Of a stretch of 64,000 nucleotides of DNA, positions 2,018-19,457 are shown one piece after another. The stretch comes from Candidatus Latescibacterota bacterium (lineage in GTDB: Bacteria > Latescibacterota > UBA2968 > UBA8231): assembly GCA_965204725.1 (NCBI GenBank), contig OZ242005.1, positions 1,344,001 through 1,408,000 on the forward strand, given 5' to 3'. The stretch's first letter is position 1; each line of letters starts with the position of its first letter. The position numbers and the translations under genes are program-made. The notes beneath the pieces are model-generated. The model had not been told where the DNA came from and searched no databases. It saw only the letters and a program-made list of their open reading frames with translations.

Positions 2018-3612
2018 TGCGGATTTTGCCGCCGGCCGTTCTCTCGCTGACAGCGGGACTGCTGGCCTGTCAACCACCCGAACCACCCGAGCCAAAGCCC
2101 CGCGTCGTCGCCGTCGTTGACCGCGATACGATCGACGTCGAGTCCTACCGCGCGATGGCGGCCAAGCTGCTGGCTTCTTCCCATCGCGGCCAAGATCCCG
2201 CCCGCCTCGACACGAGGCGTCGGTTGCTCGATGCGATGATCGACCGACAGCTTCTGGTGATGGAGGGGCGACGCCGGAAGCTAAGCGCGTCGCCGCGAAT
2301 CGCCGCGGCCCTTGAAACGCTCCAGAACAAACTCCTCTGGCGCGCCCTGTTCAACGCGGTTGCCATTGACGCTGGGCGCGATACGACCGGCATCTATGCC
2401 TTTGCCCGCGAAAAAGGATTCACCGAAGAGGTGCTGCTCCAGCACGTGATGCTGGCCAATGAGGCCGATGCGTGGAGCGTCCTCAAAGCACTCGATGCGG
2501 GAGAGCCGCTTGATGTGCTCGCCGTCGAGCGTTCGGTCCACCACGAGACCGGGGGCTTGGGGGGCTACTTTAGCTACATGTCCGTATCCCAAGTGCTCCC
2601 TGAGGTCCGCGAGCAAATTCTGTCTCTGGAGCCGGGTCAAACCTACCCGGAACCGCTGACCTCCCGCTACGGGGTTCACGTGTTTCGCCTCGTCGATCGC
2701 CGCCCGGCCGACCTTGCGAGCCGGTGGGATGTGGTGCTCGAGGAGTTTCGCGCCCGCGAGAGAACGCGCGTCTTCGAGGCTTTTGCCGACAGCTTGGCGG
2801 ATGCGCGTGGGCTAGTCTGCGCGAGCGAGCGGCCGGCGTCGGACCCGCTTTGTACTTGGACGACCGGCCGGTTGTTGTCATCCGATGTCGATTGGGCCGC
2901 TGCCGAGGCCGATCTTCAGGGTTGGTTGCGCGTCAAGGCCCGGGATCGGCTGGTCCTTGAAGAGGCCCAGCGTCGCGGTATGGACCGTCAACCCGGAATC
3001 CGCGAGCCGATCGCGGCGCGTAGGGAAGAGATGATGATCGACAGCCTCCGTCGTCAGGTAGTCGGGCGCATTGAGGTGCCGGATGGGGAAAAGCGTTTGT
3101 ACTACGAGGAACACCCCGATCTGTATGGCCCACGTCCGACGGTTCGCGTGGATGAAGTGCTCGTTGCGGATCGTACGCTGGCGCAACGGCTCCGCGGCCA
3201 AGCAGAGGCGGGCGTACCCATCGACTCCTTGGCGCGGGCACACAGCATTCGCGAGGTGACGAAAAAGAGCGGTGGGTCGATGTGGCTCGTCACGAGGGAC
3301 AACCCGCTGTTGGGGCCTCTCGCGCCCCTCGCGCTCGACGCGGAAGTGGGGACGCTCTTAGGCCCCCTCGAAGTACCGGGCGGGTATTCGGTTCTGCGGA
3401 TCGCCGAAAAGGGTGAGACCCCGGCCCGCCCCTATGAGGCGGTGGAACGGAACATTGAAGTGATCCTCCGGCTGCGTGCCGAGCATCAGCGGATGGACTC
3501 GTTGCTCGCCCAACTCCGCGTGGACTTCGCCGCCGCGATCGCGATCCATGAAGACGCGCTGGCCTCTGTACTGGCCGATTGGGGGGATCGCACAGACGAT
3601 GCCCGGAATTGA
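2017..3612 (+). CDS. Parvulin-type peptidyl-prolyl isomerase lipoprotein (SurA/PrsA-like, two PPIase domains)
   Basis: ATG at 2017 overlaps the upstream TGA. Lipobox LLAC. SurA-like LLDAMIDRQLL. Two rotamase-like segments (..LAVERS..GG..YGVHVFRL; ..LARAHS..GG..GGYSVLRI). Confidence 0.8.
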   Translation: MRILPPAVLSLTAGLLACQPPEPPEPKPRVVAVVDRDTIDVESYRAMAAKLLASSHRGQDPARLDTRRRLLDAMIDRQLLVMEGRRRKLSASPRIAAALETLQNKLLWRALFNAVAIDAGRDTTGIYAFAREKGFTEEVLLQHVMLANEADAWSVLKALDAGEPLDVLAVERSVHHETGGLGGYFSYMSVSQVLPEVREQILSLEPGQTYPEPLTSRYGVHVFRLVDRRPADLASRWDVVLEEFRARERTRVFEAFADSLADARGLVCASERPASDPLCTWTTGRLLSSDVDWAAAEADLQGWLRVKARDRLVLEEAQRRGMDRQPGIREPIAARREEMMIDSLRRQVVGRIEVPDGEKRLYYEEHPDLYGPRPTVRVDEVLVADRTLAQRLRGQAEAGVPIDSLARAHSIREVTKKSGGSMWLVTRDNPLLGPLAPLALDAEVGTLLGPLEVPGGYSVLRIAEKGETPARPYEAVERNIEVILRLRAEHQRMDSLLAQLRVDFAAAIAIHEDALASVLADWGDRTDDARN

Positions 3613-3636
3613 AGAGTACTGGGAGCTGCGCGGGTC

Positions 3637-4839
3637 ATGCCGGCCGTTTTCGTCTTCTTCCTACTGAGTGCCTGCGAGGGGGCTGCGCCCGAGCAAGAAG
3701 TCGCCCGAGCCATCCTCGACAGCGCGCTAGCGCACTCGGCGCGCGGTGAATCCGTCGCCGCGATCCGGCTGCTGCGCCGGGCGGCGCAGCTCGATCCACA
3801 GGATCCGGTCATCCCCTACAATCTCGGCAACAACTTGGCGCGGCAGGGCCGTCTCGACCAAGCTGTTGCGTCGTACCAACGAGCGCTATTCCTCGAACCT
3901 AAGTACGCGGCTGCCCATTACAACCTAGCGTCCGTGCGCTCTGCGGCCGGGCGGCACGAAGAAGCGGAAGCGGGCATGGCGCGCGCGATTGAGGCCGACA
4001 GTGGCTATCAGCCCGCCCACAAGGCGTTGGCGCAGTTGCGGGAACGGCGCGGCGACTACGATGGTGCCATCGAATCGCTGGAGATTGCGGTGGGGATCCG
4101 TCCCGACGATGTGGAGGCGCGCAATCAGCTCGGCTACCTGCTGGGGAAGCAGGGACGCCCGACCGCGGCCAAAGCGGTTTTGCGGAGGACGCTGCAAATC
4201 GACTCGACCCACGCGGACACTTGGGCACACTTAGGGGCGCTCCAACTCGCCGCCAAGGACTTTGCGAGCGCTCGCCAGTACTTAGAAAGGGCCGTCCAAC
4301 TCAACGCATACCACACGAAGGCGCACTTCGACTTGGCCAACTGTCTGATGCGGCTGGGCGAGAAGCAGAGTGGACGAGAGATGCTGCGGCGGTTTGAGAT
4401 GCTGCGATCGCTGGACGAGGACATCGCCAAGTACCGAGAGGCGATCCGCCACGACCCCACCGATCCGGCCCTCTACCAAGCACTCGCTCGCCTGTATGCA
4501 AGACGGGGTGAGGCAGACAAAGCGATTCAACGCTATCGACAGGCCATCGCCCGCGATGCCGAATTGGCCGCTGCCCACAACAACTTGGGCAACCTCCTGC
4601 TGCAACAGAAGCGACCCGAAGAGGCGGCCCGGGCCTATCGAGCCGCGTTGCTCGCCGACTCCACCTACGCCCTCGCCCACAATGGAATCGGTACCGTCAG
4701 ACTCCTTGCGGGGAATAGGGTCGGGGCCATGGCGGCCTTTGCCCGCGCCGTCGAATTGGATTCCGCAAACCGCACATTCGCCGACAACCTCAGAGCTGTC
4801 CAGATGCTCCTACGACAAGAAGAGGAATCGCGTGATTGA
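3637..4839 (+). CDS. TPR-repeat lipoprotein
   Basis: Lipobox LSAC. Repeated TPR consensus (YNLGNNL..QGRLDQA..YQRAL; AHNNLGNLL; AHNGIG). Confidence 0.88.
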   Translation: MPAVFVFFLLSACEGAAPEQEVARAILDSALAHSARGESVAAIRLLRRAAQLDPQDPVIPYNLGNNLARQGRLDQAVASYQRALFLEPKYAAAHYNLASVRSAAGRHEEAEAGMARAIEADSGYQPAHKALAQLRERRGDYDGAIESLEIAVGIRPDDVEARNQLGYLLGKQGRPTAAKAVLRRTLQIDSTHADTWAHLGALQLAAKDFASARQYLERAVQLNAYHTKAHFDLANCLMRLGEKQSGREMLRRFEMLRSLDEDIAKYREAIRHDPTDPALYQALARLYARRGEADKAIQRYRQAIARDAELAAAHNNLGNLLLQQKRPEEAARAYRAALLADSTYALAHNGIGTVRLLAGNRVGAMAAFARAVELDSANRTFADNLRAVQMLLRQEEESRD

Positions 4840-7774: not shown

Positions 7775-10111
7775 ATGTACAGGCGACTCGCACCTGACAG
7801 CCATTTTAGGATTCTTTTGCAAACAACACTTAATAAGGCCATCGGCTGGACGGTCGTTGGGCTGGGGCTGTTTTGCGGCTCGGCGACAGCGCAAGGGGCG
7901 GCGCGCGTTGAAGTGCCCATCTTTGAGGGCGGCGCGGGCTTGGACTTTTTCTTTTTTGCCGCCCGCGAATACGAAAAAGTCCGTCCCGAGGTGCAGGTCG
8001 ATCTCTACGGCGACCCGCGCATTGCCGACAAGGTGCGGGTGCGGATTCTCGAAGGAACCTTCCCAACAGTCAGCAACGCCGGTCTCAACTACTGGGCGCT
8101 GATCCGCAACGGCGAAATCCTGCCCCTCGACGCCTATCTGGACGGGCCGAGCTGGGACGGGGACCGGACTTGGCGCGCGTCCTTCCTGCCCGGCAGCCTC
8201 GACCGCTATGAGTACGAGGGCAAGACCTACGGCATCCCCTTGCTCTATTCGGTTTACGTCGTCTGGTACAACAAAAACATGTTTGCGGAGCACGGCTGGG
8301 CACCGCCGCGCACTTGGGACGAGTTTTTCGCCCTCTGCGAGCAAATCCGCGCCGCCGGGGTTTGGCCGCTGGCCTTTCAGGGGCGTTATCCGGGCTATAT
8401 CGGCGGCGTGACCGACAACGCGTATTATCACCTCGCGGGCCGCGCCCGGTTCTACGAGCAGAAGGAGCTGGTGCCGGGCAGTTTCGCCAACCCCGAATAC
8501 GCGACCGCGCTCAGGCTCATTCAGCGCACGGCGCAGGAGTACTTCCAGCCCGGGGCCCTCGGCATGAGCCACACCGAGGCGCAGCTCGAATTTTTCTTGG
8601 GCCACACTGCGATGGTTTTTTGCGGCTCTTGGCTCAAAAGCGAGATGATGGGCAAAATCCCCGACGGCTTCCGCTTGGGAGCGTTTAATTTGCCCGTGGC
8701 CGAGGGGGGAGCCGGCGATCCCGGGGCCATCTACACAAGTGCTGGGTATTACTTTGTCTTCAAAAACAGCGCCCACACCGAGCTGGGCGTGGACTTTTTG
8801 CGCTTTATGACCTCGCAGGAGATGGCCGGCACCTTTGCCGAGATGCGCGATGTTTTGGTGGCCATTGATGGGGCGATGGAGGGACGCACCAGCGAAGATT
8901 TGCAGGACCTGGTGAACTTGGCGCAACGAGCGACGACGACCTATGGCACGGCCCCGGGCGAAGGCTTCCCGGAGATGGACCAATTCCTCAACGATGTGCG
9001 CTTCAAGATCGTCAATGGGCAGCTAACGCCGGAGGAGGGCACCCAGCAACTGGAGGAGGCCGCCGAGGCTGTACGCAACCGCAGCGAGCGTCCCGATCAA
9101 GTTACCGCCCGCCACCTGTGGAAACCCGCGCTGCTGTTGGGGCTTTTGGTGCTGGCGATGGGCTATTGGTTATCTACGACGGCGCGGCAGTGGCGCGAAA
9201 GACGAAGCGGCCAAGCCCCCCGACCTACCAGCACCGTGCGCTTGGGTTGGGCTGGGGTGGTGGTGTTCGTCGGGCCGGCCGCGGCGTTCTACACGCTCTT
9301 TGTGGTCGTGCCCAGCATCAAGTCCTTCGTCTGGAGCGCGATGCGCTGGGACGGGTTGACGGAAATGGTTTTCGTCGGGCTGTTGCACTTCCAGCGGCTG
9401 CTCTTTGAGAGCGACGAGTTTTGGATCGCGCTGTCGAACAATCTCTTCATCATGTTTATCATCCCGCTCTGCGTGTTGCCGCTGTCGCTCTTTTTGGCGG
9501 TGTGCATCAGCCGCGAGGTCGTCGGTGCCAAGCTCTTTCGCATCGTCTTCTTCTTTCCCAACATTCTCGGCGGAGTCGCGGCGACGCTGCTGTGGATGCA
9601 CCTGTACAATCCACAGGGCGGGCCGATCAACACGGTGTTGGTGGCCTTGGGATTGGAGGGGTTTGCCGGCTTTGCTTGGCTGGCGCAGGACAACCTCTAC
9701 TGGGCGCTAATACCCATGTCGATCTGGGGCGCGGCCGGGTTCAACATGGTGCTGTTTTTGGCGGCCATGGAGAGCATCCCGCAGAGCATGTACGAGGCGG
9801 CTGACATCGACGGGGCTTCGGCTTGGCGGCAGTTTTGGTCGATTACCGTGCCGCTGATTTGGGAGGTCTTGTCGATAGCGATTGTGTTTATGATCATCGG
9901 CGGGATGAAGGCGTTTGAGGTGATTTGGCTGCTGACCAATCAGCGGCCGACGACCGACAACCACGTGATCGGTACGCGGATGGTGCAGGCCATGTTTACC
10001 GAGTTCAAGGTGGGAGAGGCCACGGCGATTGCCGTGCTGCTCTTTTTGATCGTGTTCTTTGGCACCACCGCAACCTTGCGGGCCATGAAGCGCGAAGCCG
10101 TGGAGTTTTGA
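7775..10111 (+). CDS. Carbohydrate ABC transporter: solute-binding protein fused to permease
   Basis: N-terminal CUT1 SBP (YNKNMF..G..PPRTWDEF). C-terminal permease with EAA motif SIPQSMYEAADIDGASAWRQF. Exact start uncertain. Confidence 0.88.
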   Translation: MYRRLAPDSHFRILLQTTLNKAIGWTVVGLGLFCGSATAQGAARVEVPIFEGGAGLDFFFFAAREYEKVRPEVQVDLYGDPRIADKVRVRILEGTFPTVSNAGLNYWALIRNGEILPLDAYLDGPSWDGDRTWRASFLPGSLDRYEYEGKTYGIPLLYSVYVVWYNKNMFAEHGWAPPRTWDEFFALCEQIRAAGVWPLAFQGRYPGYIGGVTDNAYYHLAGRARFYEQKELVPGSFANPEYATALRLIQRTAQEYFQPGALGMSHTEAQLEFFLGHTAMVFCGSWLKSEMMGKIPDGFRLGAFNLPVAEGGAGDPGAIYTSAGYYFVFKNSAHTELGVDFLRFMTSQEMAGTFAEMRDVLVAIDGAMEGRTSEDLQDLVNLAQRATTTYGTAPGEGFPEMDQFLNDVRFKIVNGQLTPEEGTQQLEEAAEAVRNRSERPDQVTARHLWKPALLLGLLVLAMGYWLSTTARQWRERRSGQAPRPTSTVRLGWAGVVVFVGPAAAFYTLFVVVPSIKSFVWSAMRWDGLTEMVFVGLLHFQRLLFESDEFWIALSNNLFIMFIIPLCVLPLSLFLAVCISREVVGAKLFRIVFFFPNILGGVAATLLWMHLYNPQGGPINTVLVALGLEGFAGFAWLAQDNLYWALIPMSIWGAAGFNMVLFLAAMESIPQSMYEAADIDGASAWRQFWSITVPLIWEVLSIAIVFMIIGGMKAFEVIWLLTNQRPTTDNHVIGTRMVQAMFTEFKVGEATAIAVLLFLIVFFGTTATLRAMKREAVEF

Positions 10112-11031: not shown

Positions 11032-13107
11032 CTAGCGGCTGTAGCGCAGGCCAAAGAAAAAGCCCGGCCACGCGAAAAGCCCATCCTTCCATTCCCTCTC
11101 GTAGCGGCTACCCGACTCGATCAGCCGGAGATGGCTATCGGTCCACAACTGGTTCAAGGAGACGCCGCCAAACAGCGACAGATGGCGGTGCAAAAAGACC
11201 CCCGTCCCGAGTTTAATTCTGGCCAGATAGTTGTCCCTGTTCAAGCGGTCCAAGCCCAAATCCACCTTGAGCGGCCAAAGGTCAACACCTGCTTTGTAAT
11301 CATCGTTGAGGTCGCGGCTGATCCGGTAGATATGGGTATCGAGGCCGAGGAAAAACCGCTGGCCGCGCTTCTGCATCCCGCCCCCCAAGCCCAACGCCCA
11401 GCGCCGCTGCCCGCCCTCGTCGGCAAAGCCCGTGGTAAAAGAGGTGTAAAACGAGCGGCCGCCCGAGGCGAGGGTGAACATGGTAAAGCCGACTTCGTCG
11501 CGCCAAGTGCTGAAGTTGAAAAGCCCGCTGCGCGAGTAGTTGAGCAGCCCGATGGGCAGGCCGCCCTCGATATGGCCAGAAAGGTTGATCACGCCCACCT
11601 GCAAGCCCTTGACCTCGCTCGCCACGTTCAATACCCCGACCTGAACGCCCTTGACCTCGCCGGCAAAATTGGTCACGGCCACTTGCAAACCGCGGATTTT
11701 GCCGGCGATGTTGAGCAACCCTACTTGTCCACCTTGTAAAGGCCCTAGCCCCCAGCCGCGCACTTGAGAGGCAATGTTGAGAAATCCTACTTGCCCACCT
11801 TGTAAAGGCCCCAGCGCCCAGTTGACGCCCGTGACGGTCGCCTGCCAGCCGTTGACCTCTTTGAGCGCCAAGTTGCCCACCCCACTCATTTGGGTGCCCG
11901 TCCGCGCCCGCGCTTGGTTGACCAGCAAGGCGAGCTGGACGCCGCGGAACGCCGCGTCTTGGGTATTGGTCAGCAGCCCCAGCGACAGCGTGTAGCGCTC
12001 GCCGGCAACCTCGATTCGGCGGCCTAAGGTGATCCGCCGCCGTGAGCCGCCCCGTAGCCTAGCGTCCTCTGGGGACAGGACGCGAAAATCGCCGCCCCGC
12101 ACCTCGGCGAACTCGTCCTTAGTCAGGTCCAACTCAGCCACTTGCCAGCCCGCATCCCACGTTTGCAAAAACAGGGTATAGGCCCCCGGCACCAATCCCA
12201 ACTCGACCGCCCGCCCCGGGGATTTGTTCAGTTCGGCGACTAGACGCCGCTGGGCATTGCGGATGGCGATCTGGCCGGCGAGGCCCTCGTCTAGCAACAG
12301 GCCCGCTGCGTTGCGGCGCACCTCGGTCATCACCACGCCGCCGGTGCCGCGCATCTGGCCCTCGTAAGCTGGATGCTGAGTGCCTCCGGCCGTGCCAATA
12401 GTCCGCGCCCGCGTCTCGTCAAAGGCGAACTGGTAGGCCTCGTGGAGGGTCACTCGGCCATCGCCGGTAACGTCGGCCGCGCCGCGCATCCCGGAAATTA
12501 GATAGTGCGTAAAAAAGGACGCTTCGATCTGGTCCGATTCCTGCGCGGCCTCGTCGGCCGAGCTCGAAGTGAGGAAGGCGTACCCCCGCATGTCAAAGGA
12601 CTCGTCAACCAAAAAGGGCGGCTGGGGCTTGCCCCCTTTGATGCGGGTTATGGAGCCGGAGTTACAGGCATCGAGGACGGCGATGCGGACGGCGGCCTCG
12701 GTCGTCTTGAGCGAGTCGAGCAACTGCTGGTAGCCGAGGTGATCGCCCGCCAAAAGCAGGCCCTCTTCGTCGGCGTGTCCCGAGTAGTAAAGCAGTACCT
12801 CTAAGCGGCCTCCCCACCGACGGGCCGCCTGCACCCGCCGGCCTAGATCGGCCAGCCCCTGCTCAAAAGCGGCCAAGTCTGGGTCGCGCAACAGCACCAC
12901 ATCGGCCGGGTCCAAGCCCCCCATCTCCTGCAAGACCTCGACGAAGTGTTCCGCGTCCGAGACCGCGTAGCGCAACAACTCGCGATCCACCCCGCCGTTG
13001 TTGGCCCCGGCCGCCAGCACCAACCGGCGCATCTCGGCGGCGGCCGGCTGCAAAGACAGGCCCGCCACAACGACGAGCGCGATTAGCACACTCAGCCGCG
13101 ATAGCAT
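11032..13107 (-). CDS. Exported caspase-family (peptidase C14) protein with G-x-Q-x-G-x-x-N repeats and a probable outer-membrane C-terminal domain
   Basis: Signal peptide ending AAA. LRYAVSDA. Catalytic His in YYSGHA and Cys in LDACNSG. S.FTHYL..G.RGAAD. Repeats GVQLALLVN/GLQVGVIN. Ends FFGLRYSR. Confidence 0.88.
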   Translation of the reverse strand: MLSRLSVLIALVVVAGLSLQPAAAEMRRLVLAAGANNGGVDRELLRYAVSDAEHFVEVLQEMGGLDPADVVLLRDPDLAAFEQGLADLGRRVQAARRWGGRLEVLLYYSGHADEEGLLLAGDHLGYQQLLDSLKTTEAAVRIAVLDACNSGSITRIKGGKPQPPFLVDESFDMRGYAFLTSSSADEAAQESDQIEASFFTHYLISGMRGAADVTGDGRVTLHEAYQFAFDETRARTIGTAGGTQHPAYEGQMRGTGGVVMTEVRRNAAGLLLDEGLAGQIAIRNAQRRLVAELNKSPGRAVELGLVPGAYTLFLQTWDAGWQVAELDLTKDEFAEVRGGDFRVLSPEDARLRGGSRRRITLGRRIEVAGERYTLSLGLLTNTQDAAFRGVQLALLVNQARARTGTQMSGVGNLALKEVNGWQATVTGVNWALGPLQGGQVGFLNIASQVRGWGLGPLQGGQVGLLNIAGKIRGLQVAVTNFAGEVKGVQVGVLNVASEVKGLQVGVINLSGHIEGGLPIGLLNYSRSGLFNFSTWRDEVGFTMFTLASGGRSFYTSFTTGFADEGGQRRWALGLGGGMQKRGQRFFLGLDTHIYRISRDLNDDYKAGVDLWPLKVDLGLDRLNRDNYLARIKLGTGVFLHRHLSLFGGVSLNQLWTDSHLRLIESGSRYEREWKDGLFAWPGFFFGLRYSR
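11705..11821. repeat. Near-identical ~51-nt direct repeat (period 66 nt) inside the caspase repeat region
   Basis: gcgatgttgagcaaccctacttgtccaccttgtaaaggccctagcccccag (11705-11755) vs gcaatgttgagaaatcctacttgcccaccttgtaaaggccccagcgcccag (11771-11821). Confidence 0.85.
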
Positions 13108-13118
13108 GGATTGTAACT

Positions 13119-13691
13119 CTACCAGATGTCGCTGAGATTCAGTACAAATCCCGGCAAGGTGGGATCGGCCGATAGGGCCTTGAGGTTTTTTAGCACTTCA
13201 ACCGGGAGGTGCGGGCGGTAGATCGCTACGGTTTTTTGCTCTGGGACAATGAGCCAGCCCAGTTGAGTGCCGTTTTCAATGTATGCTGCCATTTTTGCTC
13301 GCAACGATAGCAGATCATCCGAGGGCGACTTGAGTTCGATGACAAACTCTGGACAAAGCGGCAAAAAGCGGTCCTTTTGCGCCTCGGTCAGGGCATCGTA
13401 CCGCCGCCGCGCAACCCACGCGCCATCCGGCGAGCGGACAGAGCGGTCGGGTAGCACAAATCCGCTCGAGGAATCAAAGGCCACGCCGGTGCCATCTCGT
13501 TTGGCCCACAAGCCCAACTGCACGGTAATTTCTGCATTCCGGGCACCCGTTGCTCCTCCCGTTGGGGGCATAATCAGTACTTCTCCCTTTGCATTGCGCT
13601 CAATGCGCATGTCGCGATTGAGCTGACAAAAGTCAAAAAACTGCTCTTCGGTTAGATCGATAACGGGCTGAAAGTTCAGTACGGCTTCCAT
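13119..13691 (-). CDS. Uma2 family (DUF820) putative endonuclease
   Basis: ATG at 13691 after GAGG. RIERNAKGE, FDSSSGF.LP, RSPDGAW, CPEFVIELKSPSD, GWLI.P, LPGFVL. Confidence 0.92.
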   Translation of the reverse strand: MEAVLNFQPVIDLTEEQFFDFCQLNRDMRIERNAKGEVLIMPPTGGATGARNAEITVQLGLWAKRDGTGVAFDSSSGFVLPDRSVRSPDGAWVARRRYDALTEAQKDRFLPLCPEFVIELKSPSDDLLSLRAKMAAYIENGTQLGWLIVPEQKTVAIYRPHLPVEVLKNLKALSADPTLPGFVLNLSDIW

Positions 13692-13714
13692 AGAGATACC
13701 TCGCCGGGTGTGCG

Positions 13715-14479
13715 CTAAGGGGCCTCTGGTTTGCGTAGGGTGAAGGCAAAAAGGTGGAGGTCGTCGGCCAACGCCACCTCGCCGGCGACCAGCTTGGCTC
13801 GGATCGGGGATAGACCAAAGGGGCGGTCGGCCGCCACCAAGTAAAACCGCTCCCACAGGGGCGCGTCGTCGAGTTCATAGGCCACGTCGAGGGTATCTTG
13901 CGCGGCCAACGGCACGGCTTGGGTCCCGGCTGCCGGCAGGTGCCACGTTGCAGCACCGCGCCCGTCAACGGACAGGATCGCCCCGTACTGCAAGCCACCG
14001 GAGCGGTAAGCGAGCTGCACCCAATCCCCGCGTTGGGCCAAGGCCCCGTCCGGCAAACGCTCCGCACCGCTGGCCAGCTTGCGAAAGACCATCAAGCGCG
14101 GCGTCCGCTCACCGCCCTTAACCCGCAGTGCGGGGGCTTGCGGGGGGTCTTGGTCAAAGAGAGTGGGCACCGCCACTACCGCCAGGATCAGGGCCACGGC
14201 CGGAACGGCCCAAAGGCGATACCCACTCCACGTCCGTTGGGCGCGCCGGCCCTGCGCCCGCTTGCGTTTTAGCTCGATCTGGCCGCGCATCCATTCGGGT
14301 GGGTAGCGCCTAAGCACTTCCTCGTTGGAACGCTCTAGGGCGGCTAGACGCTCCGCGAGCGCGGGGTCGGTCGCCAACTGGCGGTCCAAAGCCGCCAACT
14401 CGGCCTCCGTGCCCTCGCGCAGCAGGTAGCGCTCTAGCTGGTAGTCGCTTATGGGGCGCTGCTCTTCTTGCTGGTTCAT
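13715..14479 (-). CDS. Membrane-anchored putative anti-sigma factor with periplasmic domain
   Basis: N-terminal LERYLL.E..anti-sigma-like helices without the HxxxCxxC zinc motif. One TM helix (LWAVPAVALILAVVAVPTLF). Start overlaps the sigma stop (ATGA). Confidence 0.75.
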   Translation of the reverse strand: MNQQEEQRPISDYQLERYLLREGTEAELAALDRQLATDPALAERLAALERSNEEVLRRYPPEWMRGQIELKRKRAQGRRAQRTWSGYRLWAVPAVALILAVVAVPTLFDQDPPQAPALRVKGGERTPRLMVFRKLASGAERLPDGALAQRGDWVQLAYRSGGLQYGAILSVDGRGAATWHLPAAGTQAVPLAAQDTLDVAYELDDAPLWERFYLVAADRPFGLSPIRAKLVAGEVALADDLHLFAFTLRKPEAP

Positions 14480-14949
14480 GCTTGCTCCATCTCTTGCAGC
14501 GACGCTCTCAGGCCGAGCAATCGCTTGCGCACACCCGACACGGACAGCCCCACTTGCTTGGCTACCTCTTCTAAAGTCATGCCGTCCACGTAGTACAAGA
14601 CGGCCATCGTCCGCGTTGACTCGCGCTGCTGGCCAAAGAGCTTGGCGAGCACGGTGCGCGCCTCTATCCGGCCCTCGGCGTCCTCTGAGCAGGCTATCTG
14701 CTCCAGCAGCGTCGAGTCGGCCGTGGTCTTTCGCCGCTGGGTGTCGCGGATGCGATTGAGGCAGAGGTTGGTCGCTATGCGGTAGAGCAGGCTGGAGGGC
14801 GCGTCGGCCCGCAGGCGGTCGCGCCGCGTCAACAGCCGCACAAACACGTCCTGAGTGACGTCGAGTGCCTGATCTTCGTCGCGCAAAAGCTGCCGACAGC
14901 GACGCAAGACCATCGGTCCGTAGCGACGGTACAGGGTATCTACGTCCAT
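14476..14949 (-). CDS. ECF RNA polymerase sigma factor
   Basis: Region 2: LYRRYG..V.RRC, DVTQDVF, LYRIATNLCLN. Region 4: GMTLEEVA..VGLSVSGVRKRL. Confidence 0.93.
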   Translation of the reverse strand: MDVDTLYRRYGPMVLRRCRQLLRDEDQALDVTQDVFVRLLTRRDRLRADAPSSLLYRIATNLCLNRIRDTQRRKTTADSTLLEQIACSEDAEGRIEARTVLAKLFGQQRESTRTMAVLYYVDGMTLEEVAKQVGLSVSGVRKRLLGLRASLQEMEQA

Positions 14950-14971: not shown

Positions 14972-15008
14972 TTAAACACCAACGGCGGCGCAGGGTGTTA
15001 CTTTTTTT
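14972..15008 (-). promoter_or_regulatory. Putative autoregulatory ECF promoter
   Basis: Minus strand AAAAAAA-GTAAC-17 nt-GTGTTTA, about 25 nt upstream of the sigma ATG. Fits the ECF AAC..(C/T)GT pattern. Confidence 0.5.
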
Positions 15009-17873: not shown

Positions 17874-19457
17874 TCATAGTCCCGACGGTTCGCTCGGCCC
17901 TAGATCGGCGTCTTGGCCGCGGTGGAAATTGCGCCCCATCAGGTATTTTACATCCAGTTCCACGTCGCGCACAAAAATCTCCGGCAGCGCTTGGGCGTCT
18001 CGCCGCACCAGTTCGACTGCGAGCGCGTTGTTGCCCTTTTTCGGCCAGTGTTTGGCGTCCAGCCTAAACGCGTACCAATACCCCGATCCCGTGCGATAGC
18101 GCGGTGCCGACATGCGGTACAATTCGTTGATCTTGCGCAACAGGTGGGCGGGCAATTCCCGGCCGTTGAGATAGAATTTTAGCCGGTCGCGCTCGGTGTG
18201 GCCCATCACCCGCACCCGCAGCAACACTTCGTGGACTCGGCCAACCTTTGCCCAACGCCGCAAATCGTCGCTGACCGACAAGGTGACGGAAGCCGGGCGG
18301 CCCTTTTGCAAATAGGCCGGTAGCTGCATAGTCGTCCCCGGCTCGGTGGTGGGATTGGGGAAGCGGCCGGTTGTGGTCGGTACGTAGTAAATTTTGTCGC
18401 GGGCGGCCATGACCTCGGGATAGGGCAATTCCCGCAGCTTCTCGTAGAAGGAGGCTTGGTACGGCCAATTCCCGAACCAGTGCGCCAAGTATAGGCCATC
18501 GACGCCTTGCGCCCAAAAGTTGCAGGCGGCCCCGCGCACCATCTCAATGGTCGCCTCCCCCAAGCGATCGGAATCTACGTGACTTTGCAAGGCCGCCAAC
18601 ACCCGGCAGCCCGTGCCTTCGGCCGCCGCAACCAAGGGCCGGAAATCAATGGTCGAATCGAGCAGTTCGGGGCCGGAAAACGCCTGGCCGATTAGCACCT
18701 CGACCAGCCCTTGGCGCAACCACGCGGCGACATCCATGCCGACCGCATAGCACCCCTCCATGCTGTGGGGAATGCGGATGGCCAGTTCGCGTTGCTTCCC
18801 GCTCCGCTTGACAGCGCGATGCACCTCGGCCACCCACTCGGTCATGATCTCGCGGCCCGCGGCGACTTCGTCTGGGTGGAAGTAGTAGGGCTGGTAGTTC
18901 ATCTGGAGCTCAAAGCCATCGACCGGATACTTTTCTAGGGTCTCGGCAATCAGGGCCAAGCGCTCGTCGCGGACTGCTCGGTGCTTGAAGTCGAGACAAG
19001 TGCGGCCGGGAAAGTTGTCGGGCACGCCGTCTTGCGCGCCGATTTCGAGCTGGGCGTTGTCAAAGCGGAAGTCCGAGCAGCGCACGTCCTCTTCCCGCGG
19101 CCCCCGGCCCTGCTGCACCAACAGCGTCGGATAGACCTGCTTGCCGTACTGGTGGGCGCGATCGCAAATCAGGCGCAGGGGATCGTGCCCCTTGCGGATT
19201 AGGTCGCGGGCGTTTTGGTGGGCGCGGCGAAAAATCAAATGGGGCCACCGCTTCACATTGTGGCCCCACAACTCCCCGACCTCGCTGTCGTGCAGCACGG
19301 TGCGACCGTCGCCGAGGCAAAACATGATGGCCTCGACCGGCGTACCCAACAGCTCATCGACTCCCTGCTCGTATTCTTCTTTTTGCATCGGCGGCTCGTA
19401 CATGTAAATCAGCGGGTGCCGGCCGTCGTGGTAAAACATGATTTTGGGCTTGGGCAT
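17874..19457 (-). CDS. GHL10/DUF187-like TIM-barrel protein (putative glycoside hydrolase)
   Basis: G.DPL, LDFKHRAVRD..L, YPVDGFEL, GMDV..W, GVDGLY. Paralogous to 22710-24260. Confidence 0.65.
   Translation of the reverse strand: MPKPKIMFYHDGRHPLIYMYEPPMQKEEYEQGVDELLGTPVEAIMFCLGDGRTVLHDSEVGELWGHNVKRWPHLIFRRAHQNARDLIRKGHDPLRLICDRAHQYGKQVYPTLLVQQGRGPREEDVRCSDFRFDNAQLEIGAQDGVPDNFPGRTCLDFKHRAVRDERLALIAETLEKYPVDGFELQMNYQPYYFHPDEVAAGREIMTEWVAEVHRAVKRSGKQRELAIRIPHSMEGCYAVGMDVAAWLRQGLVEVLIGQAFSGPELLDSTIDFRPLVAAAEGTGCRVLAALQSHVDSDRLGEATIEMVRGAACNFWAQGVDGLYLAHWFGNWPYQASFYEKLRELPYPEVMAARDKIYYVPTTTGRFPNPTTEPGTTMQLPAYLQKGRPASVTLSVSDDLRRWAKVGRVHEVLLRVRVMGHTERDRLKFYLNGRELPAHLLRKINELYRMSAPRYRTGSGYWYAFRLDAKHWPKKGNNALAVELVRRDAQALPEIFVRDVELDVKYLMGRNFHRGQDADLGPSEPSGL

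Follow-up and report, generated by a model that had tools for sequence, protein, structure and literature searches.

A stretch of 64,000 nucleotides from Candidatus Latescibacterota bacterium (assembly GCA_965204725.1, contig OZ242005.1, positions 1,344,001 to 1,408,000 of the forward strand; the whole stretch is referred to here as the window) carries, at positions 11032-14949, four genes that are all located on the minus strand and oriented in the same direction. Three of these, encoding a sigma factor of the extracytoplasmic function (ECF) type, a single-pass anti-sigma-like protein and an exported caspase-fold protease, constitute a real and widely conserved three-gene unit, into which a Uma2-family gene is inserted in the window (Table 1). 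The first-pass annotation of this DNA had proposed that the caspase cuts the anti-sigma-like protein within a signalling system that spans the cell envelope, and the conservation, predicted structures, shared sequence motifs and upstream region of the unit were analysed with respect to this proposal.

The sigma gene product matches Sigma70_r2 (E 7e-16), Sigma70_r4_2 (26.8 bits, cut-off 25.7) and TIGR02937 (87.9 bits, cut-off 42.9); with sigma-2 and sigma-4 regions only, and with ECF models matched, it belongs to the ECF (group IV) factors. Its gene shares a 4-nt overlap with that of the anti-sigma-like protein, so that gene coordinates and family matches agree with the co-oriented, overlapping pair of an ECF sigma factor and a single-span anti-sigma-like protein that had initially been described. 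The Uma2 gene and the exported C14 caspase with its SGHA/DACNSG dyad were likewise found in the order and at the places first reported. The Uma2 ORF (open reading frame) is listed as 13119-13856, with ATG 13691 as its likely start, and its stop codon is separated from the caspase start by 11 nt.

Table 1. Genes, domains and motifs of the module. Positions are those of the window unless given as residues of the caspase; pLDDT, predicted local distance difference test.
Feature	Position	Strand	Basis
ECF (group IV) sigma-70 factor, 157 aa	14476..14949	-	Pfam Sigma70_r2, Sigma70_r4_2, Sigma70_ECF; TIGR02937
Single-pass anti-sigma-like protein, 254 aa	13715..14479	-	Position, topology, AlphaFold2 model, N-terminal motif
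Uma2-family gene, 190 aa	13119..13691	-	Pfam Uma2, E 8e-40
Exported C14 caspase-fold protease, 691 aa	11032..13107	-	Peptidase_C14, LA_2272 repeat, AlphaFold2 model
Catalytic dyad His111 (12775-12777) and Cys148 (12664-12666)	12664..12777	-	Invariant in homologues
TRIKGG, T154-G159 of the caspase	12631..12648	-	TRxK(G/S)G in 39/40 homologues
R119-V-K121-G122, candidate site-1 cleavage motif of the anti-sigma linker	14114..14125	-	Conservation; cleavage putative
Promoter-like motif GTAACAC-N14-GGTGTTTA	14973..15001	-	Conserved upstream of sigma across phyla
Caspase, first half of caspase fold	residues 26-148		AlphaFold2, confident
Caspase, second half of caspase domain, p10-like	residues 149-266 (12310..12663)	-	AlphaFold2, poor (pLDDT ~30)
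Caspase, beta-sandwich	residues 267-345		AlphaFold2, confident
Caspase, beta-helix of G-x-Q-x-G-x-x-N repeats	residues 365-525		AlphaFold2, confident
Caspase, closed C-terminal beta-barrel, 8-strand type	residues 526-691		AlphaFold2, confident

Conservation of the sigma/anti-sigma/caspase gene trio

A survey from the caspase side covered one genome per species and yielded 578 relatives; the 80 best loci were retained, and all of their ORFs were searched with the four proteins of the window. The sigma, anti-sigma and caspase genes were found together in 74 of the 80 loci, and in 73 of these 74 complete loci they follow the order sigma, anti-sigma, caspase, with 4-nt overlaps being very frequent; in the other one (L060), the caspase gene is located upstream of the sigma/anti-sigma pair. 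Three further loci are truncated by a contig end, with the anti-sigma gene adjoining that of the caspase (L006, L013 and L036), one has an anti-sigma gene and no sigma match (L066), and two offer <1.3 kb of upstream sequence, in which neither partner was matched (L062 and L078). According to their record titles, the trio loci derive from Latescibacterota, Gemmatimonadota, Acidobacteriota (many of them Vicinamibacterales), Fibrobacterota and Eisenbacteria. Clustering of all ORFs in the 80 loci revealed nothing beyond the trio that is conserved across these groups.

When the search was started from the anti-sigma side, this gene was found in 71 of 168 genomes of the window's phylum, and in 28 of the 30 loci retrieved, the caspase gene is the next one downstream. 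At the two exceptions, the anti-sigma gene is followed by a TnpB-like gene (L118) or by an inserted, unrelated repeat protein (L124). The first of these is a closed genome without the caspase, in which the TnpB-like gene (2422-3654, plus strand; IS200/IS605 OrfB-type, where IS denotes insertion sequence) was identified by eye. Conservation of the caspase beside the sigma/anti-sigma pair, which had been set beforehand as the first point on which the proposal could fail, was thus observed from both sides.

The caspase profile was positive in 67 of the 168 phylum genomes, 62 of which hold both genes. The nine genomes with the anti-sigma alone comprise two contig ends (G075 and G080), five with remnants that are partial or contain stop codons (G076, G093, G070, G163 and G120), one with a weak partial match (G067) and the insertion sequence case (G089), and the five with the caspase alone are made up of three remnants (G141, G101 and G088) and two matches to the C-terminal repeat/barrel part alone (G020 and G038). 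To a large extent, the two genes accordingly share the genomes in which they are kept, missing or decayed, where the counts include kin that are not independent and carry no statistic. In a tree of the caspase N-terminal domain (81 rows, built by a quick method with support from the Shimodaira-Hasegawa-like approximate likelihood ratio test only), Fibrobacterota formed one group (support 94), Acidobacteriota formed nearly a single group (three changes), and Latescibacterota and Gemmatimonadota labels were intermixed, which may reflect the labelling of bins by submitters. This tree suggests that the module is old and has been passed on mostly by vertical descent.

The Uma2 gene, which belongs to a putative restriction endonuclease-like family and has the same orientation as its neighbours, separates the anti-sigma and caspase genes in the window, in three of the 80 loci (L018, L019 and L024) and in L115, and the corresponding gap elsewhere measures ~115-130 nt or is replaced by a 4-nt overlap. 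Since Uma2 is restricted to the window and a few close relatives, it represents an insertion in a small sub-lineage and lies outside the conserved module. In a sub-group of Latescibacterota (L029, L032, L035, L037, L038 and L043), an Omp85-superfamily/DUF4252 protein and a second caspase are encoded ~1.5-5 kb beyond the first caspase, and this second paralogue also carries a TRLKGG sequence.

In the window, the trio and Uma2 are bounded by genes of other kinds, as convergent ABC (ATP-binding cassette) transporter genes lie 3' of the caspase gene in the ORF list, and a PhyH-type dioxygenase and an antiporter are encoded 5' of the sigma gene. A terminator scan returned six sites against 4.6 expected, a number too close to expectation to be informative on the operon end. 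Among the flanking ORFs, a single 778-aa ORF (7775-10111, plus strand) fuses an SBP_bac_1 solute-binding domain to a BPD_transp_1 ABC permease domain and is followed by a second permease gene. Upstream of the antiporter gene, a 527-aa ORF (17874-19457, minus strand) matched no Pfam family at E <= 0.01.

Predicted architecture of the caspase and the anti-sigma-like protein

The caspase matches Peptidase_C14 (PF00656) at 34 bits (cut-off 21.4) and starts with a Sec-type signal peptide (residues 1-24), read from the sequence as MLSRLSVLIALVVVAGLSLQPAAA with E after the cleavage site. His111 (SGHA) and Cys148 (DACNSG) were invariant in sets of 15 and 40 homologues. An AlphaFold2 model built from 40 homologues (mean pLDDT 74.5) divides the protein into the five parts listed in Table 1. 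Comparison of the model by VIA-align with the candidate structures proposed by Foldseek placed it closest to yeast metacaspase Yca1 (Z 15.2, rmsd (root mean square deviation) 2.4, 122 aligned, 24% identity), caspase-2 (Z 14.3, rmsd 2.3, 119 aligned) and Arabidopsis metacaspase 4 (Z 13.9), such that the protein has both the caspase/haemoglobinase fold and the His-Cys dyad that characterize C14. Foldseek with the whole caspase model gave no match at E <= 0.001. The second half of the caspase domain (residues 149-266) is the most conserved segment of the family (majority share 0.79), yet it is the worst modelled, which may reflect a shallow alignment or an order that is gained only after processing or in a complex.

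The C-terminal part of the model resembles small outer-membrane barrels, with the N-terminal barrel of OprF aligned to model residues 528-691 (Z 14.8, rmsd 2.2, 117 aligned) and the NspA barrel giving Z 13.7 (rmsd 3.2, 133 aligned). On the predicted model, the protein therefore has a small barrel of the OmpA/OmpX/NspA type after a signal peptide, and both the G-x-Q-x-G-x-x-N repeats and the barrel-like tail reported at first pass were recovered. Among sequence profiles, the NCBIfam LA_2272 surface repeat was matched above its cut-off and the VC2662 family below its cut-off, and short homologues gave weak, below-cut-off matches to OMP_b-brl (E 1e-5 and 2e-3). Small outer-membrane barrels have both of their ends on the periplasmic side, for which reason the protease domain is expected in the periplasm, where it would face the outer part of the anti-sigma-like protein. 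The suggestion that the caspase senses a surface cue found no support, as the barrel would place the protease in the periplasm and the analysis identified no part exposed at the surface.

The caspase family profile retrieved nothing from the PDB sequences at E <= 0.01, and marginal matches at E <= 10 were led by metacaspases (7qp0, E 0.029; 6w8s, E 0.54). In these alignments, LRYAVSDA of the caspase family was aligned to LRGCINDA of the metacaspases, which puts D51 on the Asp of the GC(I/V)ND motif. This Asp presumably lines the basic-P1 pocket of metacaspases, and the alignment is indicative of a putative Arg/Lys specificity of the caspase. Arg or Lys at P1 is the cleavage preference of metacaspases and orthocaspases according to the accessible part of PMC6426788. 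A relationship between the caspase beta-sandwich (residues 255-352) and the periplasmic domain of the anti-sigma-like protein was considered and rejected (hhalign probability 0.5%, E 0.11). PADLOC, applied to the three module proteins, gave a weak 'caspase' match (E 3e-4) and nothing else.

The anti-sigma-like protein contains one hydrophobic span (residues ~89-107) that is preceded by a Lys/Arg-rich stretch and followed by ~145 residues. Its AlphaFold2 model, built from 30 homologues (mean pLDDT 86.6), consists of an N-terminal domain of four helices (residues 12-84, pLDDT >90) that is predicted to be cytoplasmic, a membrane helix, a linker (residues 105-121, pLDDT <50) that is predicted to be disordered, and an immunoglobulin-like (Ig-like) periplasmic domain (residues 123-254) with a confident beta-sandwich at 128-249. 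A PDxxLERYxLGELP motif is conserved at the N-terminus across the homologue alignment, and this motif, together with gene position and topology, suggests an anti-sigma function.

No close structural relative of this protein emerged from the searches performed. Foldseek with the whole model gave no match at E <= 0.001, the family profile found nothing meaningful among the PDB sequences, and VIA-align, which barely tested the helical N-terminal domain, returned generic Ig-like matches only (Z <= 8.6), the best being the MG domain of alpha-2-macroglobulin (2p9r; Z 8.6, rmsd 2.1, 86 aligned), which is at noise level. DUF4384 (PF14326) was weakly matched in 8 of the 30 homologues (best E 0.0011), with no match for the window's protein at E <= 10. 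The family is large, as its profile retrieved 7557 of 1.84 billion 50%-identity cluster representatives at E <= 0.001, 4587 at 1e-10 and 2243 at 1e-30. The Ig-like periplasmic domain has a majority-residue share of 0.54, compared with 0.46 for the presumed sigma-binding part, and such conservation suits a constant protein partner.

A shared R-x-K-G motif and a promoter-like motif

The linker of the anti-sigma-like protein is variable between the transmembrane span and its end (9-42 residues, majority share 0.26), and terminates in an R-x-K-G motif with a majority share of 0.86. All 30 homologues have K-G, and 29 of them also have the R; among the best 150 family representatives, R.KG occurs in 137 and x-K-G in 149, with I, V or L as the middle residue in 120 of 143 occurrences. 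In the window's protein, the motif (R-V-K-G) falls within the segment that AlphaFold2 models as disordered (pLDDT <50). A matching sequence, TRxK(G/S)G, is found 6-11 residues past the catalytic Cys in 39 of 40 caspase homologues, and in the window's caspase this TRIKGG opens the low-confidence stretch of the model (residues 149-215). R.KG occurs exactly once in the caspase and once in the anti-sigma-like protein, compared with its occurrence in 14.5% of shuffled caspase and 4.4% of shuffled anti-sigma sequences.

In caspases, the large and small subunits are separated within the loop region after the catalytic Cys, and TRIKGG is a candidate autoprocessing or pseudo-substrate site. The presence of the same motif in both proteins is suggestive of the anti-sigma-like protein being a substrate of the caspase. 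Lys121 is a plausible P1 residue, because the nearest solved relatives of the caspase are metacaspases, enzymes that cleave behind Arg or Lys.

Upstream of the sigma gene, a -35-like element (GTAACAC, 15001-14995) and a -10-like element (GGTGTT, 14980-14975) form a promoter-like motif that ends 23 nt 5' of the sigma ATG. Alignment by eye of the 110 nt upstream of the sigma starts revealed GTRACAC-N14-GGTGTT, often with TAA or a sequence close to it behind GGTGTT, in the majority of the loci compared, including those of Fibrobacter, Acidobacteriota and close relatives. The promoter originally proposed at 14972-15008 thus encloses a motif that is conserved across phyla. ECF promoters are compatible with the 16-nt spacing between GTRACA and GTGTT and with the AAC of the upstream element, and the sigma factor may read this motif.

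The 5.43-Mb genome contains three sites of this motif, with or without one mismatch. Apart from that of the module, one site (C1:2089586-2089614) is located 73 nt upstream of a gene for a 1070-aa superfamily 1 helicase (AAA_11/AAA_12) that matches PADLOC MkoA (Mokosh) at E 5.6e-74 and leads a run that continues with a pair of unknown genes and one for a PP2C phosphatase. The helicase was present in 3 of the 31 genus genomes searched, its own genome counted, and the motif in front of it is kept in a relative of 82% identity and not in one of 92% identity. This run is divergent from a pair of genes for an XPB-like helicase and a DUF790 protein. The other site (C1:3546010-3546038) lies 267 nt upstream of a gene for a 591-aa protein without family assignment, with a gene for a beta-CASP metallo-beta-lactamase behind it. 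An orthologue of the 591-aa protein in another genome (L092, 54% identical) has the motif at a similar distance, and the protein atlas offered no usable lead on this protein (best score 0.89).

With a stricter form of the pattern, the distribution in five other genomes was variable: in one, four additional sites were present, three of which precede genes for exported proteins, and in another, the single match lies away from the module, whose own upstream motif deviates from the pattern; the remaining three are considered below. Judged from this distribution, the sigma factor most likely autoregulates, with the rest of its putative regulon being small and variable between lineages.

Possible modes of action and related systems

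The reading that we favour, albeit tentatively and with a little less than even confidence, is that the caspase is an outer-membrane-tethered site-1 protease whose cut in the anti-sigma activates the sigma factor. In this scheme, the four-helix domain that the anti-sigma exposes to the cytoplasm would retain the ECF sigma factor at the inner membrane, and the exported caspase would be anchored by its small C-terminal barrel in the outer membrane with its protease domain in the periplasm, the beta-helix acting as a spacer between barrel and protease in the lineage of the window. An envelope cue would activate the protease, possibly by self-cutting at TRIK/GG (a slash marks the scissile bond), after which the protease would cut the anti-sigma in its flexible linker after Lys121 (R-V-K/G) and remove the Ig-like domain. 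The remaining stub would then be cut by a site-2 protease of the RseP type (Peptidase_M50 has two matches above cut-off in the genome), and the freed sigma factor would transcribe from GTRACAC-N14-GGTGTT promoters, comprising its own operon, as a feedback, and a few lineage-specific targets. Of this scheme, the analysis documents gene content, topology features, predicted folds, linkage and the conservation of the sequence and promoter motifs; we infer the sigma binding, the periplasmic location and Lys/Arg specificity of the protease, the two cuts, the action of RseP and the cue.

Mechanisms of this general kind are known. In the RseA/DegS/RseP system of Escherichia coli, a periplasmic site-1 cut is followed by a site-2 cut by an M50 protease and by release of sigma-E, with the state of the outer membrane as input (summarized in PMC11506125). 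There, the site-1 protease is an inner-membrane serine protease triggered by porin C-termini, whereas in the window the operon itself encodes the candidate site-1 protease, a cysteine protease with an outer-membrane anchor. The module may plausibly be regarded as a variant of protease-gated ECF/anti-sigma signalling.

By analogy, the closest proposed mechanism is that of DdvA of Myxococcus xanthus, whose periplasmic CHAT domain has been proposed, and not demonstrated, to make the site-1 cut in DdvA itself before RseP acts, as described in the accessible part of PMC11506125. DdvS/DdvA and the module have in common an ECF sigma factor, a single-pass anti-sigma and a periplasmic His-Cys module of the caspase superfamily near a flexible juxtamembrane linker. 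In DdvA, as far as that source extends, TPR-CHAT is fused to the anti-sigma, is turned towards the linker of the other protomer of a dimer, on which it is proposed to act in trans, and is accompanied by a zinc-bound anti-sigma domain (PMC11506125); in contrast, the window encodes a separate, metacaspase-like C14 protein tethered to the outer membrane and a 254-aa anti-sigma that has one Ig-like domain, lacks HxxxCxxC and contains neither CHAT nor TPR.

A second parallel is provided by the type III-E craspase (Csx29, Csx30, Csx31 and RpoE) associated with CRISPR (clustered regularly interspaced short palindromic repeats). Csx30, which is cut by the CHAT protease Csx29, binds RpoE, and some Csx30 C-terminal domains correspond to DUF4384, according to the accessible part of bioRxiv 10.1101/2022.08.17.504292. 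The likeness, to the extent covered by that source, is that a caspase-superfamily protease cuts a flexible linker of an anti-sigma-like protein and frees an ECF-type sigma factor. The craspase is cytoplasmic, RNA-guided, linked to Cas7-11 and a CRISPR array and based on a TPR-CHAT protease, whereas the protease of the window is an exported C14 enzyme with a signal peptide and a barrel. No cas gene is present among the immediate neighbours of the module (PhyH, antiporter, ABC transporter), which agrees, within the scope of these neighbours, with the earlier claim that the system operates independently of CRISPR.

Operons of this type are not reported here for the first time, having been in print as an observation since 2012. 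Asplund-Samuelsson et al. noted that four metacaspase operons of M. xanthus share sigma-70 factors, and that sigma-70/metacaspase operons are also present in Anaeromyxobacter, Haliangium, Sorangium, Ralstonia and Fibrobacter (PMC3501461). These are probably the same operon type as that of the window, with Fibrobacter loci occurring in both sets. The accessible part of that paper reports co-occurrence alone and mentions no anti-sigma, motif, promoter, topology or mechanism, and the similar gene trios that had been cited from myxobacteria are thus in print as sigma-70/metacaspase operons, at the level of a bare operon observation.

Among classified ECF groups, ECF25 has a single-pass anti-sigma at position +1 that may carry DUF4384, with subgroups in Fibrobacteres, Gemmatimonadetes and Acidobacteria, according to the accessible part of PMC7826278. 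The likeness of the module to this group concerns anti-sigma layout and phyla. In the same work (Casas-Pastor et al. 2021), the accessible main text does not contain 'caspase', 'Peptidase_C14' or 'CHAT', nor is 'caspase' found in the part of the supplement examined (PMC7826278). Full-text literature searches, with most subscription journals outside their coverage, returned no paper on the mechanism of the module.

Several observations weigh against a caspase-driven release of the sigma factor. The substrate pocket of the caspase is poorly resolved in the model, with residues 149-266, which include TRIKGG and the p10-like half, at pLDDT ~30. The R-x-K-G motif has three fixed residues only, and that of the caspase may simply be an active-site loop. 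For the anti-sigma-like protein, searches of Pfam and NCBIfam up to E 10 returned no family, and none of the best 150 family representatives has the HxxxCxxC zinc motif in its first 80 residues, so that even the name anti-sigma is one that we infer. Tight coupling of the anti-sigma and caspase genes is not essential, since Uma2 intervenes in the lineage of the window. Finally, in three of the five other genomes, the module operon is the sole site of the stricter promoter pattern.

This last result is most readily accommodated if the caspase is the output of the system, for it would then be the sole conserved cargo of the sigma factor. Under such an arrangement, which we consider possible though somewhat unlikely, even if the data accommodate it about as readily as the first reading, the DUF4384-like domain of the anti-sigma would sense the cue, another protease (DegS-, Prc- or CtpB-like) would remove it, and the sigma factor would raise the level of the caspase. 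The substrates of the caspase would then be other proteins of the periplasm, and its role could be quality control, the clearing of foreign proteins, remodelling or cell death. ECF operons commonly carry effector genes, and the second caspase and the Omp85/DUF4252 additions of some lineages resemble an expanding effector set. A caspase acting downstream leaves unexplained, however, the invariant R-x-K-G island of the anti-sigma and its counterpart in the caspase, as well as the uniformity of the anti-sigma periplasmic domain across phyla, and the clustering of ORFs in the 80 loci identified no other protease gene that is conserved in the module.

Conservation of the anti-sigma periplasmic domain, the tight co-inheritance of caspase and anti-sigma, and an outer-membrane tether that faces an inner-membrane anti-sigma are also features expected of a binding partner or co-sensor, comparable to RseB on RseA or FecA on FecR. 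In that case, docking of the caspase-fold protein on the Ig-like domain would relay the state of the outer membrane by conformational change or dissociation, and proteolysis would be self-directed or dispensable. We regard this as unlikely, given that 40 homologues show no change in the His/Cys dyad or in many residues around it, an invariance that argues for catalysis being under selection. An accidental proximity of the three genes, with no function in common, is barely credible, as nothing beyond the tolerated Uma2 insertion speaks for it, and adjacency in 74/80 and 28/30 loci from five phylum-level groups, together with shared loss and decay, speaks against it.

Should the caspase act as the site-1 protease, a broader and decidedly improbable extension would be that the module is a periplasmic early-warning device. 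By cutting the anti-sigma at R-x-K/G, the outer-membrane-tethered caspase zymogen would report damage to the envelope or entry through it, and in the genome of the window the freed sigma factor would turn on genes directed at nucleic acids in the cytoplasm, namely the operon of the MkoA-like helicase and that of the unknown 591-aa protein and the beta-CASP nuclease, which both have the rare promoter motif, as a CRISPR-independent counterpart, in several phyla, of the defence controlled by DdvS/DdvA.

Bacterial caspase homologues are numerous and few have a known substrate, and many ECF sigma/anti-sigma pairs are without a known trigger. The module described here supplies a large uncharacterised family with a candidate substrate, a candidate site (R-x-K/G) and a candidate reporter promoter. 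If the caspase acts as the site-1 protease, the module would represent a third wiring of a caspase-fold protease to an ECF sigma factor, next to the CRISPR craspases and DdvA with its fused CHAT domain, and no earlier one would have its protease held by an outer-membrane anchor. With the caspase as output, the module would define a regulated periplasmic caspase.

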